Sequence record: MH051917
Direction: 5' to 3' (one strand)
Length of the DNA stretch: 64,000 bases
Origin: Enterobacteria phage vB_EcoM_IME341
Shown here: positions 1,837-37,841 of the stretch, piece by piece
Numbering within the stretch: position 1 is the first letter of the stretch
Layout of the letters: each line of letters opens with the position of its first letter
Notes under the pieces: generated by a model
Seen by the model: the letters and a program-made list of their open reading frames with translations, nothing else
Database searches by the model: none
What the model was told of the DNA's origin: nothing
Made by a program: the position numbers and the translations under genes

Positions 1837-2981
1837 TTGAATTATATGATAACTTGATGGCCCTGGTTAAAAACTCGACTAAATCTAAGTTCTTCTTTAA
1901 AGACTTTCAGAGTGCGCTAGGAGTCAACTATCGCATCTTTAGTTATAACTATGCATCGTACAGTGATTGGTTGGAAGACGGCGCCCTAGAGTGTCGAGGC
2001 ATTATGTTTGAAATGGACGAGAATGGTCCGGTACGTATTGCTGCTCGTCCTATGCAAAAGTTCTTTAACCTCGACGAAAACCCTATGACTATCGGTCTGG
2101 ACTTGTCGCCAGAAAATATCGACCTCGTAATGGCTAAGGAAGATGGTTCTCTGATTTCTACATTCATGGACCGACAGTATCTTTCTGTTAAATCTAAAGG
2201 CTCTATCCATTCGTCAATGGTGCACGATTCTTTACGTTTCCTTCGTCTCCCTGAGAACGAGGCTTTTGCCGCACGTCTAGAAGAAATCACCAAAGCCGGG
2301 TATACCTGCAACCTTGAATATGTCGCACCTACCAACCGTATCGTGCTGGCTTACCAAGAAACGAACCTCATCCTGTTAAACGTTCGTAATAATGAAACAG
2401 GTGAGTATATTCCATATGCTGAACTGTTTAAGGACGGCGCGCTGCGTAAGCATTTGGTTGAAAGTTATGACCTCACCGAAGGTGATTTCGTAGAAAACAT
2501 CCGTAAACAAGAGGGTATTGAAGGTTTTATCTTTGTACTGAAAGATGGTACGTTCTTTAAACTCAAAACTGCATGGTACAGTGCACTGCATCATACCAAA
2601 GATTCCATTAACAATAACGAACGTTTGTTTGAAGTTGTAGTGGCGGGTGGAACTGATGACCTTCGTGGTCTGTTCAGTACAGATTCGTTTGCTATCGAGA
2701 AAATCGATGCCTTCGAACGTATCCATTTAGATTACTTAGAACAATCATTGGCTTTGTTGGAAGCAGCTTACTCTCAACTCAAGGGCCGCGACCGTAAAGA
2801 CTACGCTGTTACTGGACAGCTAATCCTTAAGGACTTCCCAGGGTTGTTCTCTATTCTTATGCAGGCGTACGTAGGCGGTATTAATTATGATACGGTTGTA
2901 GACCAGATTAACTCTGTGTTCTTGAAAAACCATAAAGCCCAAATCCCTGAAAAATATTTGAAAGAAATTGCGGTAGAGTAG
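1833..2981 (+). CDS. rnlA: RNA ligase 1 (gene 63)
   Basis: 382 aa; strong similarity to T4 Rnl1 (e.g. YRIFSYNYASYSDWLEDGALECRGIMFEMDENGPVRIAARPMQKFFNL, KEDGSL lysine-adenylation motif, FVAPTNRIVLAYQE); ATGA overlap with the denA stop. Confidence 0.95.
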   Translation: MIELYDNLMALVKNSTKSKFFFKDFQSALGVNYRIFSYNYASYSDWLEDGALECRGIMFEMDENGPVRIAARPMQKFFNLDENPMTIGLDLSPENIDLVMAKEDGSLISTFMDRQYLSVKSKGSIHSSMVHDSLRFLRLPENEAFAARLEEITKAGYTCNLEYVAPTNRIVLAYQETNLILLNVRNNETGEYIPYAELFKDGALRKHLVESYDLTEGDFVENIRKQEGIEGFIFVLKDGTFFKLKTAWYSALHHTKDSINNNERLFEVVVAGGTDDLRGLFSTDSFAIEKIDAFERIHLDYLEQSLALLEAAYSQLKGRDRKDYAVTGQLILKDFPGLFSILMQAYVGGINYDTVVDQINSVFLKNHKAQIPEKYLKEIAVE

Positions 2982-3009
2982 TTTACATCTCCTCATGATG
3001 TGTTAGTAT
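2981..3009 (+). promoter_or_regulatory. Early (sigma70-type) promoter upstream of the Alc-sized ORF
   Basis: GTTTAC -35, 17-nt spacer, TAGTAT -10, followed by a CATGAGGAG leader. Confidence 0.5.
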
Positions 3010-3039
3010 AGACTTACCAACTAATGAGGAGAAAACAAA

Positions 3040-3540
3040 ATGAATATGCAAATGATTACTAACGAAATGGTTGTTAAGGCTTTTGGTGACTCTACTGACG
3101 GTATCCAAGTTTTTAAAGGTTCTCGTGCAGTAGGTTACCTGACCGATCTTCGTGTTACTTTAGCTAAAAATGCTAAAAAGAAAATCAAGCAAAAAGAATA
3201 CTCTACCCGTTATGCAGAAGAAAAGCGTGAAGCCATGCCTGAAGCTGTTAACTCTATGGTTGAGTTTCTCCAAAACAACCTTTCCAAGTACGATGCCGAG
3301 GTATTCATTAATATTAGCCAACCTAATGTTAAAATCTCAGGCATCACTTTCTATTTGATTTGTGACCCATTAAGCGACAAGTTTAATCGCCTTGGCATTT
3401 CAAGTCCTTACCATACCGCTGAAGAATTATGTTTTATGTTCGAAACGTACAAAATTCAGTGCGAAAATCCTAAAACGGTTCTTATTAATTCCCTGTCACG
3501 TGATGACATCATCGAGATTATTACCAAATGTCTAAATTAA
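3040..3540 (+). CDS. Hypothetical early protein; candidate Alc homologue by position and size only
   Basis: 166-aa ORF with GAGGAG Shine-Dalgarno immediately after rnlA; T4 has the 167-aa alc gene at this position. I cannot verify sequence similarity from memory. Confidence 0.5.
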   Translation: MNMQMITNEMVVKAFGDSTDGIQVFKGSRAVGYLTDLRVTLAKNAKKKIKQKEYSTRYAEEKREAMPEAVNSMVEFLQNNLSKYDAEVFINISQPNVKISGITFYLICDPLSDKFNRLGISSPYHTAEELCFMFETYKIQCENPKTVLINSLSRDDIIEIITKCLN

Positions 3541-3881
3541 GTATTTACCTTTTAGCTGGAGCCATTGCAGTAGGTGCTTACGGTTTTATTTCGTATCAAT
3601 CAAGTCGTATTGATACCCTTACTGAAGAACTGAAAACTACCCAGCAAACGGCCAAACAGAATGCCGAAGCCGTGGATGACCTACGTGGCCAATACTCGGA
3701 TATTGAATTCCGCACTACTGAAATGAATGCCCGATTGGATAAAATTAAGGTAGAAAATGAAAAGCTCCGTAAAGATTCGAAGAAGGCGCACGTGGTGGCA
3801 AGTAAGCCAGGACTGGTCGAAAAACAAATCAACAAGTCCTTCGATTCCTTTACAGAAGACTTCAGGAGCATTACAGAATGA
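3528..3881 (+). CDS. i-spanin (Rz-like, T4 PseT.3 equivalent)
   Basis: 117 aa; N-terminal transmembrane helix (LSIYLLAGAIAVGAYGFISY) followed by a charged coiled-coil periplasmic domain; immediately precedes a lipoprotein ORF. Confidence 0.75.
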   Translation: MSKLSIYLLAGAIAVGAYGFISYQSSRIDTLTEELKTTQQTAKQNAEAVDDLRGQYSDIEFRTTEMNARLDKIKVENEKLRKDSKKAHVVASKPGLVEKQINKSFDSFTEDFRSITE

Positions 3882-4168
3882 TTAAATTATCTGTAGTAGT
3901 ATTATCTATTGGCATGTTAGTTGGATGTGCCCAGGACATCCCTGTAGTGCCTAAGCAACAACTGCATCCTTCATGGCCACAACCTATTGCCGAACATAAT
4001 GTTAAGTGGCAGGTTAAGGTAATCGACGGTAAGGCCTGGGTTGGAATGCCGTTTGAAGATTCCCAAGAACATCGTATTTGGTTGAATGACGTAAAAAGAT
4101 ATGTACAAGACCAGAAATCTATGTTATGTTATTATCGTTCCGGGTTAAAAGAGGAGAAGTGCAAATGA
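3878..4168 (+). CDS. o-spanin (Rz1-like outer-membrane lipoprotein, T4 PseT.2 equivalent)
   Basis: 96 aa; signal peptide with lipobox (SIGMLVGC|AQ), proline-rich mature region; ATGA overlap with the i-spanin stop. Confidence 0.75.
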   Translation: MIKLSVVVLSIGMLVGCAQDIPVVPKQQLHPSWPQPIAEHNVKWQVKVIDGKAWVGMPFEDSQEHRIWLNDVKRYVQDQKSMLCYYRSGLKEEKCK

Positions 4169-4269
4169 TTGAGTGTAGTCTTGGTTGGGATGCCGTTAGA
4201 TTAGCTATCGCATTCTTTTGCTTCGGGATTGCGTTCAGTATGTGTATTGATGGTCTTTTTGGAAAGTAG
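4165..4269 (+). CDS. Possible 34-aa hydrophobic peptide translationally coupled to the o-spanin
   Basis: ATG overlaps the o-spanin stop (ATGA); MIECSLGWDAVRLAIAFFCFGIAFSMCIDGLFGK has one predicted transmembrane segment. Below the ORF-track size cutoff. Confidence 0.3.
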   Translation: MIECSLGWDAVRLAIAFFCFGIAFSMCIDGLFGK

Positions 4270-4298
4270 TTTACAAACTCTTGGGAGCAGAGTATAAT
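4269..4298 (+). promoter_or_regulatory. Early promoter, canonical T4 type
   Basis: GTTTAC-N17-gTATAAT. Confidence 0.65.
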
Positions 4299-4333
4299 GC
4301 TCCTACGGATTATAAAAAATTGAGGAAATTATT

Positions 4334-4812
4334 ATGACTTTACGTGATAACAGTTTTGTGGCTAAGCCTGAATACATTTCAGGTGTTAAATCTCCTGCAT
4401 TACAAAAGCTCCTTAAGCTAGGGTCCTGTGCAAGTACACCACTTGAAAAGAAGGCAACTTTCGATTTTGCTTGGGCTATGGTAGACGGTATTGATGTAGT
4501 AAGACAGGTAACTTTTTATGCTCCAGGGTCTATTGAGCCTTCGCAGATTATTAATTTGGATGGAAGTAATTATATTACCATCCAACAATGGTATCGTATG
4601 ATGCGCCCGGTTTGGGAATACCCTGAATTCGTTGAAGAATATAATGAAAAAGAACGTATTCGTGAATTGGTGAAAAGTTTTGAATATGCGGCTAAACGCC
4701 ATGGTCAAATGCAATCCGCAGTAACCCTTGGCGATGTTCCTGAAAGTGTTGCTTACGAATCAGGTAAAACCCTTAAAACTTGCCGTGAAGAACTTTATAA
4801 GGAACTTGGCGT

Positions 4813-4816
<4 letters not shown>
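4334..4816 (+). CDS. Hypothetical early protein (pseT.1-region ORF)
   Basis: 160-aa ORF downstream of a canonical early promoter (GTTTAC-N17-TATAAT at about 4269-4298) with an AGGAAA Shine-Dalgarno. Confidence 0.6.
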
Positions 4817-6016
<1,200 letters not shown>

Positions 6017-32826: not shown

Positions 32827-33195
32827 ATGCCGCTTCTTAAAAAGAGAAATGGTGCCACCCGTCAGGTCTTCCTGACGAAACGATACGCCATCAAAATACC
32901 CAGTTTCTATAGTTGGAAATTGTTTTTAACTGGATTATGTTGTAATATAACAGAACATGAGTTTACATCTTTGAATGACTCGTATTTGTGCCCTGTTATA
33001 TGGAAATCTTGGTTAGGACTCGTTATAGTTATGCCAAGAGCTAAAGAAGTTACTAATATCGGGTTGTGGAAAACAGAAATACACCATGCTAGGCACCACA
33101 CTCTGGTAGAAAGCCTGTATATGTCTGATTGCAAGCCTTCAAATTATGGTTACCTTAAAGGTAAATTGGTTAAAATTGATTATGGAAGCAAATAA
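32827..33195 (+). CDS. Hypothetical protein with protein-kinase-like motifs (truncated kinase-like fold)
   Basis: 122 aa; YAIK (beta-3 lysine-like), DCKPSN (catalytic-loop-like D-x-K-P-x-N) and KIDYG (DFG-like) in kinase order; stop abuts the rnlB start. Confidence 0.5.
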
Positions 33196-34204: not shown

Positions 34205-34212
34205 ATGATAAA

Positions 34213-34235
34213 GGGACCGTAAGGTCCCTTTTTTT
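34213..34235. terminator. Bidirectional terminator between convergent rnlB and the gene 24 paralogue
   Basis: GGGACC-GTAA-GGTCCC hairpin flanked by an A-run and TTTTTTT. Confidence 0.8.
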
Positions 34236-35517
34236 AGTTTTTATCCAATGGAGGAAGTTTAACACCAAGATAAGAACTCAATTGACTTTGATTAGCCATT
34301 TTGTCCATATCCGCACCGTCAATAATACGAGCTTCTTTGTCGTCTTTAGCGACGGTATAAGGATTCGCAGTCAATGCATACCGAGCCAATAAAGATATGG
34401 TAGGTTGCAATGAATCTGGGTCTACAATAACCTTGAATTCACCTACTGAAGTATCACCTTCATCATCAACTTCTTCGAGCCCTTCCGTATAAGGCGCATA
34501 ATACAAAGATGCGACCGTCTGCCCTTCACCCATCTGAGCATTTACACCGACAATAACATAATCACACGGACTATTCATATCAGCATAAAGTGGTAGACCG
34601 TTCTTTAATATGCCATAAGCTAATTCGTCTTGGTCTTCTTTTTTCTCAACCCAACCGGATGCAGCTAAAATAGCGGCGCAACGAGAAGAAGCTACTGCAT
34701 AAGTACCTGCAAACGAAGTCTGGCGTTGAACAGCAGAATTCATTTCACACATATAGTAATACAAGGTACGCGCTCGGTCTTGGGCGTTATCATATTGTGG
34801 GTCTGTTAAGTTCAAGACGCCTTTCTCGGAAACTCCTTGGACTTTAAAACGAGAACTTACCGTAATTAAGGACTGTAATACGTCTTTATTAATTTCTTCG
34901 GCCATTTGAATAGCCAAAATATTGTCTATAAAGTCTGGTGCATTAAACCCGTTGGATTCTAAATCCTGGGCCAGTTCTACAGTCAAAGAAGTTTTAAGTT
35001 TACGCGATTTAACTTCAGTCTGCCACTTATCAATACGGAATCCTGCTTCAGCAATCTCAGGATGGCCTTTTTCAAATTTATTGGTAAAGGCTGCATCAGA
35101 CATCATACGAATATGGCCTGCTGCAATAGCTTCTGAAATAACTTCACCCAAATCGGTTTCAGTTGTTCCTGCAAACGGAGAAGCTTCTAATACCTTGAAA
35201 ACCACACTTTCGAATTGGAACATATCACCAACAGCATATGCTTCGTCTTTATCGGTGAATTCAGGAATGTTTTTACGTTCGAACATACCAATTTCGCCTG
35301 CAAAAGTGGCTCCGCCGAGATAAGTCATTTTATCGTCTGGGTTTAAAACACGGACACCATATAATGCTGCAACAGGTTGAGTAGTTTTTTGTTCAGCAAC
35401 AAGGGCTTTAAAAATTCTTTTATTAGTTGCCTGGGTATATGAAAGAAGATTAGGACGGGCGACCTGGTTGGCCGCCGTCAAAGTTGATTCTTGTATTAAT
35501 GCATTAATCTTTTTCAT
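34234..35517 (-). CDS. Capsid vertex protein paralogue (gp24-like, second copy)
   Basis: 427 aa; roughly 50% identical by eye to the adjacent gp24 (e.g. ...RPNL...AT.K.I....AEQ.T.QP.AALYGV..L.PD...); starts one codon after the gp24 stop (TAAATG). Confidence 0.85.
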   Translation of the reverse strand: MKKINALIQESTLTAANQVARPNLLSYTQATNKRIFKALVAEQKTTQPVAALYGVRVLNPDDKMTYLGGATFAGEIGMFERKNIPEFTDKDEAYAVGDMFQFESVVFKVLEASPFAGTTETDLGEVISEAIAAGHIRMMSDAAFTNKFEKGHPEIAEAGFRIDKWQTEVKSRKLKTSLTVELAQDLESNGFNAPDFIDNILAIQMAEEINKDVLQSLITVSSRFKVQGVSEKGVLNLTDPQYDNAQDRARTLYYYMCEMNSAVQRQTSFAGTYAVASSRCAAILAASGWVEKKEDQDELAYGILKNGLPLYADMNSPCDYVIVGVNAQMGEGQTVASLYYAPYTEGLEEVDDEGDTSVGEFKVIVDPDSLQPTISLLARYALTANPYTVAKDDKEARIIDGADMDKMANQSQLSSYLGVKLPPLDKN

Positions 35518-36798
35518 TTATGCCTCGTAAATAATTGGAGGAAGTTTAACACCAAGCAGATAAGACATATTACTCTGCCCTGCCATTAAATCCATATTAG
35601 TTGCGTCTATAACACGAGCTTCTTTATCATCTTTAGCAACGGTATACGGGTTTGCTGAAAGTGCATAACGAACCATCAGAGAAATAGCCGGTTGCAAACT
35701 ATCAGGGTCTACAATAACTTTATAGGCACCAACATGTTCTTGGTCGTCTAAATCCAGACCTTCGGTATACGGAGCATAGAAAATAGAACCAACTACTTCA
35801 TTACCGCCGTAATCTTCTTTAACGCCTACGATAACATAATCTAAAGGACTATTAACATCACAGAATACAGGCAATCCATTAATCAAATAACCGTAAGCAG
35901 TTTCTGGGAGCCAAGCTTCATCTTCTGGTTTATGTTTCAACCAACCTGAACCTGCAAGCATTGCGGCTACACGACTAGATGCGACAACAAACGTACCTGA
36001 ATAAGAAGTGGTTTTCTGAATTTCAGAATTCATCTCACAAACCATTTCATATAATTTACGTGCACTTTCTGGAGCGGAATTATAGGACAAATCAATAATA
36101 CCGTTATCAGATACACCAGTTACTTTGTAACGTTTAGATACGGTAATCAAGGATTGTAATACGTCTTTATTGATTTCATCAGCCATTACAGTGGCTAAAA
36201 GGTCTTCTAAGAACGCAGGGGCGTCGAAGCCATTAGATTCCATGTCTTGGGCTAGTTCTACAGTCAAAGCGGTTTTAAGCTTACGGGACTTAACAGGGGC
36301 GTTCCATTTATTAACCTGGAATACTGCATTGCTAATTTCAACATCACCTGCTTCGAATTTTTCTGTGTGGGCCGCATCAGGAACAAGACGACAAGTTAAT
36401 GACACCAAACCTTCTTGAAGGGCATCAGCCAATTCTGTAGCGCTAGTGGATGCGAGTGGGCTTGCTTGAAGAGCCTTATAAACCACATTCTGATACTTGA
36501 AATATTCACCCTCGGCAATCGCCTGGGCCTTATCTGTGAGTTCCGGGATAGTTTCACGGTCTTTAGAACCAACTTCACCGCCATAAACGGCACCAGTTTG
36601 GAAGCTGAATTCATTATCAGGGGTAAGATATTTGACACCATACAATGCAGCAATAGGCTGGCTAGTACGTTGTTCAGCAATAATATCACGGTAAATCAAT
36701 TTGGTTGTAGCACGGGTCAAAGCAACAAGATTAGGGCGACCCAATGAGTTGCTAGAAGTAGTTGTTGACTCGCGCAGTAATTCGTTAATCTTTGCCAT
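35518..36798 (-). CDS. 24: Capsid vertex protein gp24
   Basis: 426 aa; near-identical to T4 gp24 (MAKINELLRESTTT.SNS.GRPNLVALTRATTKLIY.DI.A.QRT.QP...); late promoter TATAAATA about 29 nt upstream. Confidence 0.95.
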   Translation of the reverse strand: MAKINELLRESTTTSSNSLGRPNLVALTRATTKLIYRDIIAEQRTSQPIAALYGVKYLTPDNEFSFQTGAVYGGEVGSKDRETIPELTDKAQAIAEGEYFKYQNVVYKALQASPLASTSATELADALQEGLVSLTCRLVPDAAHTEKFEAGDVEISNAVFQVNKWNAPVKSRKLKTALTVELAQDMESNGFDAPAFLEDLLATVMADEINKDVLQSLITVSKRYKVTGVSDNGIIDLSYNSAPESARKLYEMVCEMNSEIQKTTSYSGTFVVASSRVAAMLAGSGWLKHKPEDEAWLPETAYGYLINGLPVFCDVNSPLDYVIVGVKEDYGGNEVVGSIFYAPYTEGLDLDDQEHVGAYKVIVDPDSLQPAISLMVRYALSANPYTVAKDDKEARVIDATNMDLMAGQSNMSYLLGVKLPPIIYEA

Positions 36799-36826
36799 TG
36801 CGCTTTCCTTATTGAGGGTATATGTT

Positions 36827-36834
36827 TATTTATA
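36827..36834 (-). promoter_or_regulatory. Late promoter for gene 24
   Basis: TATAAATA on the minus strand, about 29 nt upstream of the gp24 ATG. Confidence 0.65.
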
Positions 36835-36899: not shown

Positions 36900-37166
36900 A
36901 TGAACAAGTTAAACTTTATTCGTACTACTCTTTCCGCTCTTGATAAAGACATCAAAGCCCTGGTAGAAAAATATGGTTCCAATCCTAACGGTAATGCAGT
37001 GAATGCACTAGTTAAGAAATACGAAGCCATGGCTTATGCTACCGACTTCTGGTGGAACGGTGAATACTCTACCCATACCAAAGACAAATCTGGTAACTGG
37101 CTGAAAATCCAAGAAAATCGTATTGACTTCCGTGATATCATCAACCGTCGTGTCAAAGCAGCGTAA
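36900..37166 (+). CDS. Hypothetical protein
   Basis: Start at the ATG behind GAGGAG (track ORF begins at 36885); 88 aa; early-type promoter at about 36841-36870. Confidence 0.5.
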   Translation: MNKLNFIRTTLSALDKDIKALVEKYGSNPNGNAVNALVKKYEAMAYATDFWWNGEYSTHTKDKSGNWLKIQENRIDFRDIINRRVKAA

Positions 37167-37169
37167 AAT

Positions 37170-37841
37170 ATGAATTATTTAATTTACAAAATAACCAATC
37201 TCATTAATAACAAGATTTATGTTGGAGCCCATGCCACTACAGATGTTAATGATTCTTATATGGGCTCCGGGGTTAACATAGTAAAATCCATAAAGAAATA
37301 CGGCTTAGAGAATTTTAAAAAGGAAATCCTTTTCAATTTCGAAACATCTGAAGAGATGTATGCTAAGGAAGCCGAACTAGTTGACGAGGCTTTTGTTATG
37401 AGAACAGATACTTATAATGCAGCTTTAGGTGGTAAGGGTAATCCTGTTATAGTAGCTTTACAGGAACCTGGGTATCGTGAGATGTTATCCGAAAAGACCA
37501 AGGCAGGTATGACCAAGGAAGTAAGGGCCAAAATGTCTAAATCGAAAACAGGTTCTAAAGAATCCAAAGAGCACCGAGAAAACAAATCTATAGCTAATAA
37601 AAAGTTTTATGAGAATAGGGATTCTCATCTTAAAGGTAGGAAACTATCGGAAGAACATAAAGCCAAAATTAGAGAGAACTCTAATAAAGGTAAGAAATTT
37701 GTATTTGTTGATATAATGATTAAAGGATATAGATTTGACAGATACGAAACCGCCGCCGAATTTTTTAATGTTACCGGAGCTACCATTCGTAATTGGATTA
37801 AAGAAACAAGGCCTCAATTTGACGATTGCTATAAGTTATAG
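37170..37841 (+). CDS. Seg-like GIY-YIG homing endonuclease (segD position between genes 24 and 23)
   Basis: 223 aa; canonical GIY-YIG N-terminus (YLIYKITNLINNKIYVGAH...YMGSG), NUMOD3-like repeats (SEKTKAGMTKEVRAKMSKSKTGSKESKEH), C-terminal HTH-like end (FFNVTGATIRNWIKE). Confidence 0.85.
   Translation: MNYLIYKITNLINNKIYVGAHATTDVNDSYMGSGVNIVKSIKKYGLENFKKEILFNFETSEEMYAKEAELVDEAFVMRTDTYNAALGGKGNPVIVALQEPGYREMLSEKTKAGMTKEVRAKMSKSKTGSKESKEHRENKSIANKKFYENRDSHLKGRKLSEEHKAKIRENSNKGKKFVFVDIMIKGYRFDRYETAAEFFNVTGATIRNWIKETRPQFDDCYKL

Follow-up and report, generated by a model that had tools for sequence, protein, structure and literature searches.

Phage T4 encodes a single pentameric vertex protein from one gene 24, whereas the DNA analyzed here, a stretch of 64,000 nucleotides from Enterobacteria phage vB_EcoM_IME341 (MH051917; hereafter the window), carries two such genes. 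In T4, the prohead protease gp21 cleaves gp24 after residue 10 (Glu-10), which removes a short N-terminal propeptide, and on expansion the N-terminal arm shifts to the capsid surface and locks onto neighboring subunits (PMC9958956). A tandem duplication of the capsid vertex gene has been stated for the phages S16 and Melville in a genome announcement (PMC6486254). The two genes are already named 24a and 24b in the records of JS98, JS10 and IME08, and the record of vB_EcoM-VR5 labels the pair "capsid vertex protein I/II". A "gene 24 duplication in JS98" is reportedly also mentioned in the abstract of Chibani-Chennoufi 2004. The tandem pair is already known and has been annotated for years in JS98-type phages. 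The original prediction had implied that it was new; it is instead the common state of this phage clade, annotated in the four phages above and found in 112 records, and it matters little as a discovery given its GenBank annotation and its mention in print for S16 and Melville. In the literature that we searched, there was no functional, proteomic, genetic or structural study of 24a or 24b in any pair-bearing phage.

The window belongs to a JS98-like phage (Dhakavirus) with approximately 97% nucleotide identity to JS98, IME08 and MN04, and the 24a/24b region is 97% identical to that of JS98 across its whole 2.8 kb. The genes run 20-67-68-21-22-23-(orf)-24a-24b and meet a convergent rnlB, and the pair lies downstream of gene 23 in the late head-gene cluster. 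In JS98 (EF469154), IME08 and JS10, gene 23 and rnlB likewise flank these two genes, whose order and orientation are unchanged; this shared synteny and the placement of both copies next to JS98 in their respective clades identify the window genes as members of the 24a/24b tandem pair. Differences are confined to the flanks: a segD-like GIY-YIG gene lies between gene 23 and 24a in the window and in IME08 but not in JS98, and upstream of rnlB the window carries an additional 122-aa ORF. The features of the locus are listed in Table 1. The original description of two abutting minus-strand gp24-like ORFs of 426 and 427 aa agrees with these coordinates and with the full-length matches of both products to T4 gp24. 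Three plus-strand ORFs within the two genes (133, 82 and 110 aa) were taken as mechanical antisense ORFs, and an Rfam search of 32-40 kb matched zero RNA families.

Table 1. Features of the 24a/24b locus, in positions of the window.
Feature	Position	Strand	Basis
Gene 24a, canonical capsid vertex protein, 426 aa	35518..36798	-	ORF and homology
Gene 24b, second capsid-vertex paralogue, 427 aa	34234..35517	-	ORF and homology
T4-type late promoter motif TATAAATA	36827..36834	-	Pattern search; 28 nt upstream of the 24a start codon
Shine-Dalgarno AAGGAAA for 24a	36804..36810	-	Sequence
Shine-Dalgarno GAGG for 24b, inside the last 24a codons	35523..35526	-	Sequence
GC-rich hairpin AAAGGGACC-TTAC-GGTCCCTTT	34210..34231	.	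Terminator-like on both strands, between 24b and convergent rnlB

Both products are full-length vertex-type proteins of the HK97 fold. T4 gp24 (1yue) is matched over residues 1-424 by 24a (657.7 bits, E = 6e-197) and by 24b (503.2 bits, E = 5e-150), and both cover positions 3-376 of the 376 positions of the Pfam profile PF07068 (Gp23 family, HK97 fold). It is gp24 with which they share homology over the full length; chains of gp23, the major capsid protein, are matched weakly (approximately 48 bits each). Identity to T4 gp24 is 69.8% for 24a and 55.7% for 24b. The upstream copy had been described as nearly identical to T4 gp24, which overstates the resemblance: identity exceeds 90% in the first ~30 residues only. 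Between the two copies, identity is 56% (239/428, E = 1e-179), close to the ~50% originally estimated by eye, and they are near-identical to their JS98 counterparts (99.1% amino-acid identity between 24a and its JS98/IME08 orthologue, 99.5% between 24b and that of JS98). An AlphaFold model of 24b based on an alignment of the two window copies was unusable (pLDDT 31, pTM 0.22), and the fold is assigned to 24b because of its 57% full-length identity to the solved T4 gp24. The gp21 cleavage motif (L/I)-x-E↓S is found at residue 10 of both copies, as LRE↓S in 24a and IQE↓S in 24b, and is present in all nine 24b orthologues inspected.

The arrangement of signals suggests that 24a and 24b form one late operon, with a single predicted late promoter, coupled translation and a shared terminator. 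The late promoter of Table 1 is a motif match from which transcription is deduced; it is the sole such motif found by pattern search between 34.2 and 36.9 kb, and the motif occupies the same position in 9/9 pair-bearing genomes inspected. The Shine-Dalgarno sequence of 24a is conserved in eight of these nine genomes and reads GAGGAAA in Klebsiella phage Clarke_MM3. At the junction, the 24a stop codon (TAA, 35518-35520) adjoins the 24b ATG (35515-35517) with zero spacer, and GAGG lies 5 nt upstream of this ATG, in agreement with the originally reported TAAATG junction and separate Shine-Dalgarno of the second copy. Across the nine genomes, the distance between the 24a stop and the 24b start varies from -1 to +1 nt, GAGG is kept in eight, and a comparable hairpin is found downstream of 24b in every case. 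Overall, abutting or overlapping stop and start codons, an internal Shine-Dalgarno, a single late promoter and a hairpin characterize all nine, the window included; 24a lies upstream of 24b in each of them and in IME08.

Orthologues of 24b were found in 112 phage records from at least five genera, and the carriers of the pair comprise JS98-like, Salmonella S16-like, Enterobacter and Klebsiella T4-type phages. The tandem pair shows identical synteny in the JS98-like and S16-like phages, Kanagawavirus and Marfavirus. Gelderlandvirus (S16, Melville), another genus with another host, possesses an orthologous pair: in CF-SP2, the copies are 86.6% (24a) and 83.8% (24b) identical to those of the window and show the overlapping stop/start arrangement of pair-bearing genomes. 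Because Gelderlandvirus gp23 is not the closest to the window gp23, these phages have the pair in common although their backbones are discordant. Orthologues with at least 80% identity were found in 90 records for 24a and 90 for 24b; that 24b never occurs alone refers to these equal counts and to the loci inspected rather than to an exhaustive check.

Both copies are under strong purifying selection and look functional. Among orthologues from eight genomes, dN/dS ranged from 0.035 to 0.133 for 24a and from 0.024 to 0.109 for 24b. Present-day rates and dN/dS are equal for the two copies, with no rate acceleration in 24b; dS between paralogues is saturated, and their identity is steady at 55-57% in every one of these genomes. 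An alignment of 18 sequences presented 184 invariant columns, and 43 residues are fixed differently between the 24a and 24b clades, 14 of which fall within residues 8-68 (the N-terminal arm). The surface-exposed residues ~69-155 are the most variable part of all gp24 types (42-48% identity between types), and the P-domain-like blocks 156-225 and 341-427 are 88-89% conserved within 24b. The proposal of an old, maintained pair of paralogues is supported by the low dN/dS of orthologues (0.02-0.13), the saturated dS of paralogues and the retained cleavage motif of 24b. Nothing beyond a general suspicion of tandem repeats in assemblies would suggest that 24b is a decaying pseudogene or an artefact of assembly or annotation. 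Its ORF is intact over 427 codons with its own Shine-Dalgarno, and its dN/dS is low (0.02-0.11). An assembler would be unable to collapse or duplicate two genes with 56% amino-acid identity and saturated dS, and the 112 records with a 24b orthologue were sequenced independently. This reading has practically no probability in our view and we regard it as already refuted by the dN/dS values and the 112 records, the latter also upholding the original dismissal of an assembly artefact.

We then considered the age of the split with trees built by neighbor-joining only. The 24a and 24b clades were recovered with 98% and 100% bootstrap, respectively, the window copies lying next to JS98 in each. The 24a clade clustered with the single-copy gp24 of T4-type and AnYang-type phages to the exclusion of 24b (97% bootstrap), and 24a is orthologous to the one gp24 that T4-type phages carry. 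The alignment and phylogeny suggested by the original prediction confirmed two gp24 paralogues, but the two copies never grouped together: none of the 500 bootstraps recovered their monophyly, and for each of four sub-regions the share of replicates that did so was 0-6%. Indeed, 24b is approximately as distant from 24a as is the gp24 of Acinetobacter phages. These results indicate that 24b represents an ancient gp24 lineage of its own, as opposed to a simple local duplicate of the neighboring copy.

Alternatively, the JS98-like lineage might have experienced a recent local tandem duplication of 24a, after which 24b diverged rapidly through neofunctionalization; the deep placement of 24b would then be a long-branch artefact. 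Tandem, same-strand, abutting genes are what local duplication leaves, and 24b does sit on a long stem in the neighbor-joining tree; moreover, relative to the other single gp24s of Tevenvirinae, 21 of the 43 differences look 24b-specific and only one 24a-specific. The failure of the copies to group together in any bootstrap of the full alignment, or in more than 6% of replicates in any sub-region, speaks against this scenario. At the fixed differences, the outgroup states are evenly split (15 a-like and 17 b-like in Phi1, 18 a-like and 11 b-like in Aes012), so that 24b retains no fewer ancestral states than 24a does. The two copies also resemble the outgroups to the same degree (identity of 44/44% for 24a and 45/41% for 24b), which implies that 24b lacks excess divergence, and a recent origin is equally hard to reconcile with the equal present-day rates and dN/dS. 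Finally, five genera already share the pair at the same 55-57% paralogue identity. A recent duplication is very unlikely given these results and is already disfavored.

The position of 24b relative to the gp24 of Jiaodavirus and Acinetobacter phages is tentative (31-44% bootstrap by neighbor-joining). Jiaodavirus gp24 shows the 24a state at 21 sites and the 24b state at 15; its N-terminus resembles 24a and its core is closer to 24b. Its grouping with 24b reached at most 49% bootstrap in any region. One possibility is that it is a 24a/24b chimera produced by unequal crossing-over.

Close relatives of the window phage possess a single gp24. In AnYang, MX01 and P479, gp23 is 97-98% identical to that of the window and RnlB is 98% (AnYang and MX01) or 88% (P479) identical, and their single gp24 shares 68% identity with 24a and 52-53% with 24b. 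Similarly, within Kanagawavirus, the pair is found in ZX14 and a single gene in PEi20. We searched for compensating changes in gp23 and found no residue at which phages with the pair are fixed for one state and phages with a single gene for another. The pair appears to behave as a replaceable cassette, swapped for one 24a-like gene in sister phages. The success of close relatives with a single gene shows that 24b is unnecessary for building this capsid. We considered whether the gp24 of AnYang, MX01 and P479 might be a 24a/24b recombinant derived from unequal crossing-over. This origin was rejected: the protein is a-like at 37/43 sites and b-like at 2/43, and its identity to 24a is only 68% along the whole length. 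This gp24 represents a third allele, related to the gp24 of Mosugukvirus and PEi20.

Because the pair is swappable for a single gene with gp23 unchanged, 24b is dispensable for assembly, and this raises the possibility that 24b is a functionally redundant back-up or decoy, such that only one of the two proteins builds the vertices in a given infection. It would then matter only under certain conditions, set for example by the temperature, by the host, or by a host factor or defense system that recognizes or blocks one type of gp24. The variability of residues ~69-155 would fit pressure from outside the capsid, and the pair carriers of the VR series are, from their names and records, sewage isolates with particular growth properties; we take these to be low-temperature phages. 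Co-transcription and translational coupling in 9/9 genomes imply, however, that 24a and 24b are always made together, and such obligatory co-production is atypical of conditional alternatives. A pure decoy would need neither full-length constraint (blocks 156-225 and 341-427) nor a protease site, and a defense system that senses gp24 is absent from the literature searched. We consider a back-up or decoy role unlikely.

On balance, the locus is likely the conserved 24a-24b late operon of JS98-like and related T4-type phages, in which 24a serves as the canonical vertex protein, and 24b, an accessory paralogue of it, is expressed alongside and probably assembled into the same capsids. Under this model, the single late promoter would drive both genes, 24b would be translationally coupled and the hairpin would end the unit, so that both proteins would be made late and in a fixed ratio. 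Both would be processed by gp21 and would enter the capsid as vertex pentamers. 24a would be sufficient for the whole vertex job, and 24b would occupy a subset of the 11 pentameric vertices, whether at specific positions or randomly. The benefit of 24b would be non-essential, for instance capsid stability or altered surface properties of the vertices. With 14 of the 43 fixed differences in the N-arm (residues 8-68), vertices made of 24b would be expected to be clamped differently to the surrounding gp23 hexamers.

The prolate T4-type head has 11 non-equivalent pentameric vertices: one apical, five in the distal ring and five in the portal-side ring. It is conceivable, if rather doubtful, that homopentamers of 24a and 24b occupy different vertex classes, with 24b as a position-specific vertex protein whose N-arm would be tuned to a different hexamer environment. 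Such a role would account for 24b never being seen without 24a at the loci inspected and, if true, would provide the first tailed phage with a dedicated penton for each of several vertex classes.

An anciently diverged second vertex protein is kept under strong selection in over 100 sequenced T4-type phages, including several candidates for phage therapy, and the closest relatives of pair-bearing phages possess the same gp23 lattice with one gp24 gene. These natural variants constitute a ready comparison for the contribution of a specialized penton to a prolate capsid, possibly through stability, expansion, protease activation or surface properties. They also bear on the evolution of the type of division of labor seen between gp23 and gp24.

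T4 offers a further comparison. Its gp24 (PDB 1YUE, 5VF3, 7VS5) belongs to the same family as 24a and 24b and shares their length, N-terminal cleavage motif, genomic slot and late expression. In T4, capsid-shell positions are likewise divided among HK97-fold paralogues, gp23 and gp24, and the byp24 bypass mutations indicate that the specialized paralogue gp24 is dispensable in the right background. The two cases differ: gp23 and gp24 of T4 are approximately 20% identical and their roles are established (hexamer versus pentamer), whereas 24a and 24b are 56% identical and both of gp24 type.

Two intact and constrained genes of the gp24 (capsid vertex protein) type are present in tandem on the minus strand of the window, as stated in the original prediction: an upstream copy, 24a, and a downstream paralogue, 24b. 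The start of 24b directly follows the 24a stop and has its own Shine-Dalgarno sequence, also as predicted, with GAGG found 5 nt 5' of the ATG within the final codons of 24a. Both proteins align end to end with the solved structure of T4 gp24, 24a at 657.7 bits and 24b at 503.2 bits, and span the Pfam PF07068 profile entirely, and their matches to the major capsid protein gp23 are weak (~48 bits each). Aligned along their whole length, the two copies share 56% identity (239/428, E 1e-179), near the 50% estimated earlier by eye. The upstream copy had been described as nearly identical to T4 gp24, but we measured 69.8% identity, with values >90% confined to the first ~30 residues; 24b is 55.7% identical to T4 gp24. 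Despite the divergence between the paralogues, their Pfam scores are identical (329.1 bits, E 6e-98; window 34237-36798), which is due to chance or to a peculiarity of the program's output and was not used as evidence.

Features of the gene 24 locus and its surroundings in the window
Feature	Position	Strand	Remarks
Hoc-like outer capsid protein, 472 aa	30661-32079	+	several Ig-like repeats
ORF, 122 aa	32827-33195	+	directly upstream of rnlB
GC-rich hairpin	34210-34231	both	terminator-like on both strands
24b, ORF, 427 aa	34234..35517	-	
24a stop codon TAA	35518-35520	-	24b ATG adjoins directly
24a, ORF, 426 aa	35518..36798	-	
T4 late-promoter motif TATAAATA	36827-36834		28 nt upstream of 24a; pattern search
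ORF, 93 aa	36885-37166	+	between gene 23 and 24a, on the opposite strand
GIY-YIG homing-endonuclease-like ORF, 223 aa	37170-37841	+	between gene 23 and 24a

The signals read from the sequence indicate that 24a and 24b are wired for joint late expression. The motif TATAAATA is the sole late-promoter motif in the interval searched, and none was found there before 24b. Across the nine pair-bearing genomes that we inspected in detail (window included), the distance from the 24a stop to the 24b start is always -1 to +1 nt and a GC-rich hairpin is always found 3' of 24b; GAGG is present inside the end of 24a in eight of them.

Both genes are under strong constraint. Orthologue dN/dS (Nei-Gojobori) ranges from 0.035 to 0.133 for 24a and from 0.024 to 0.109 for 24b. 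The paralogues are 55-57% identical within each genome, with saturated synonymous sites, and neither dN/dS nor paralogue divergence gave any sign of decay or gene conversion of either copy. Base composition is equal (GC3 = 0.30 in both), and 184 alignment columns are invariant over all 18 24a and 24b sequences. In T4 gp24, the first ten residues are cut off by the prohead protease at an (L/I)-x-E|S motif (PMC9958956). This motif, at residues 8-11, reads LRE|S in 24a, and all 24b orthologues retain it (as IQE|S, IKE|S, IHE|S, IRE|S or IYE|S).

The pair is already annotated, has been published in passing (for Salmonella phages S16 and Melville, in genome announcement PMC6486254) and is typical of the clade. 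Over the 2.8 kb of the locus, nucleotide identity to the Dhakavirus Escherichia phages IME08, MN04 and JS98 is 97.2-97.5%, and 83 phage records span at least 80% of this stretch (megablast). In the JS98 record the two genes, which lie between gene 23 and rnlB, are named 24a and 24b, the JS10 and IME08 records use the same names, and the VR5 record calls the pair 'capsid vertex protein I/II'. Using 24b as a tblastn query (E <= 1e-200), we found orthologues with 78-99.5% identity in 112 records, a count that includes some phages twice as GenBank and RefSeq entries; the next best matches fall to <=63% identity. Sorted by the first word of the organism name, these records comprise Escherichia (55), Klebsiella of the Marfa/F48 type (22), Salmonella of the S16, STML-198 and Melville type (16), Enterobacter (9), Kosakonia (2), Yersinia (1) and other first words (7). 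The tandem pair was seen directly in Dhakavirus (JS98, JS10, VR5, ABTNLsp5), Gaprivervirus (PSD2001), Kanagawavirus (ZX14), Gelderlandvirus (CF-SP2) and Klebsiella phage Clarke_MM3. The number of records and this direct confirmation across genera indicate that the pair is the common, already recorded state of the group, an outcome that the original prediction had itself named as refuting it, and the novelty implied there does not hold.

We then inferred a neighbour-joining phylogeny from 29 gp24 sequences (Kimura distances, 500 bootstraps); the outgroups were Krischvirus Phi1 and Aeromonas phage Aes012. The copies form separate 24a (98%) and 24b (100%) clades. 24a clusters with the single-copy gp24 of T4, Ursula, COW86c, PM2 and AnYang-type phages in a group that leaves out 24b (97%). 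None of the 500 replicates united 24a and 24b in a clade, and with each of four sub-regions 0-6% of replicates did so. 24a is the canonical gp24 orthologue and 24b an old accessory lineage. Fast evolution of 24b was rejected as the cause of this separation because identities to the two outgroups are alike (43.7/44.2% for 24a and 44.7/41.3% for 24b) and outgroup states are shared about equally: of the 43 positions whose fixed states distinguish the clades, Phi1 agrees with 24a at 15 and with 24b at 17, and Aes012 at 18 and 11, respectively. Since 24b is about as far from 24a as the gp24 of Acinetobacter phage Acj61 (59% identity to 24a), the split predates the radiation of enterobacterial Tevenvirinae gp24. 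The original prediction was broadly correct in reading the pair as an old and maintained duplication, given the low orthologue dN/dS and the saturated synonymous sites. The placement of 24b relative to Jiaodavirus and Acj61 is tentative (31-44% bootstrap). These data fit two origins of 24b alike: a single ancient duplication with many later losses, or the capture of a distant allele beside a resident gp24 gene.

The pair acts like an exchangeable cassette. Dhakavirus AnYang and MX01 and Gaprivervirus P479 encode a gp23 97-98% identical to that of the window and an RnlB 98% (AnYang, MX01) or 88% (P479) identical, with one gp24 in between that shares 68-69% identity with 24a and 52-53% with 24b. 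Comparing pair and single gene along the locus, nucleotide identity is 95-96% in gene 23 and ~73% in gene 24, and recovers to 98% in the conserved segment that comes next, upstream of rnlB. Pair-bearing and single-gene Dhakavirus/Gaprivervirus do not differ by any fixed gp23 residue. Pair-bearing phages are scattered in the gp23 tree, where the sister of ZX14 is single-gene PM2 and that of CF-SP2 is single-gene Ursula (100% each), and within Kanagawavirus PEi20 has one gp24 gene and ZX14 the pair. The unchanged gp23 and the scattered pair indicate that one gp23 lattice takes either the pair or a single 24a-like gene. Although their carriers are scattered, 24a and 24b are each monophyletic, which indicates that the pair was exchanged or lost repeatedly.

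Only 19 records contain the AnYang-type single gp24 at >=90% identity, with PEi20 gp24 (74.5%) as its closest outside relative. The AnYang-type gene is not a 24a/24b recombinant, being a-like at 37 and b-like at 2 of the 43 diagnostic sites. The P479 record (MW269952, locus 2559-5703) has no CDS annotated for gp24 (ORF 3001-4281) or rnlB; both ORFs are intact, and this is an annotation gap. The window 24b is nearest to that of PSD2001 (95.5%), and the window 24a is 97% identical to that of ABTNLsp5, 96% to VR5 and only 90.1% to PSD2001. These discordant relatives show that alleles are shuffled inside the pair and imply recombination, either between the genes or within them.

The paralogues are most similar (69%) at T4 residues 156-225 and 341-427, and least (42%) at 69-155, the most variable region across all gp24 types. 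At residues 11-68, 24a is 79% identical to T4 gp24, whereas 24b is ~50% identical to either; identity within clades is 90% for 24a and 86% for 24b. Residues 8-68 hold 14 of the 43 fixed differences. During T4 expansion, the N-terminal regions of gp23*/gp24* reach the outer surface and their arms bind neighbouring subunits (PMC9958956). Vertices made of 24b may therefore be clamped to their neighbours in a different way.

What remains of interest is the role of the second vertex protein. 24b was found only alongside 24a in the loci inspected (all nine genomes plus IME08), and orthologues at >=80% number 90 records for each gene. Both proteins would be cleaved by the prohead protease gp21 and incorporated in capsids as pentamers, with 24b filling a subset of vertices or mixing with 24a and conferring a non-essential advantage. 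We consider it fairly probable that the two are co-assembled in the same virions. That 24b serves as a conditional back-up or decoy appears unlikely, and a role away from the vertex more doubtful still. The literature searched yielded no study of a pair-bearing phage by proteomics, genetics or structural biology, and an AlphaFold model from a two-sequence alignment was unusable (pLDDT 31). The natural pair/single polymorphism would allow the role of 24b to be tested.

Finally, we compared the surroundings of the pair with those of related phages. The GIY-YIG ORF shares 56% identity with T4 SegD and 60% with the endonuclease that Citrobacter phage Ursula has at this site; its Pfam SegE_GIY-YIG match is sub-threshold (21.7 vs a cut-off of 25 bits). 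A mobile endonuclease beside the gene-24 cassette might promote cassette exchange. This ORF is present in IME08, where it is annotated segD, and absent from JS98, AnYang and MX01 (alignment gap 37157-37836). These three phages also lack the 122-aa ORF (their alignments omit window 32830-33195), whereas JS10 has an equal-sized ORF at the same place (225-593 of its locus). The position of the 93-aa ORF is kept in JS98 (orf173), JS10, VR5, AnYang, MX01 and IME08 (orf166); neither of these two small ORFs has a Pfam match. The Hoc-like protein matches I-set, Ig_3 and Ig_2, and its Ig domain count differs among close relatives; the gene is 849 nt (282 aa) long in JS98 and AnYang and 1464 nt in ZX14. 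In IME08, 24b is separated from rnlB by an additional 1.2-kb gene annotated 'tail fiber-like protein' (locus 632-1819), missing from the window and JS98, which indicates that the region downstream of 24b is also an insertion hotspot. The pair itself is nearly the same in JS98 as in the window, with 99.1% identity for 24a and 99.5% for 24b.
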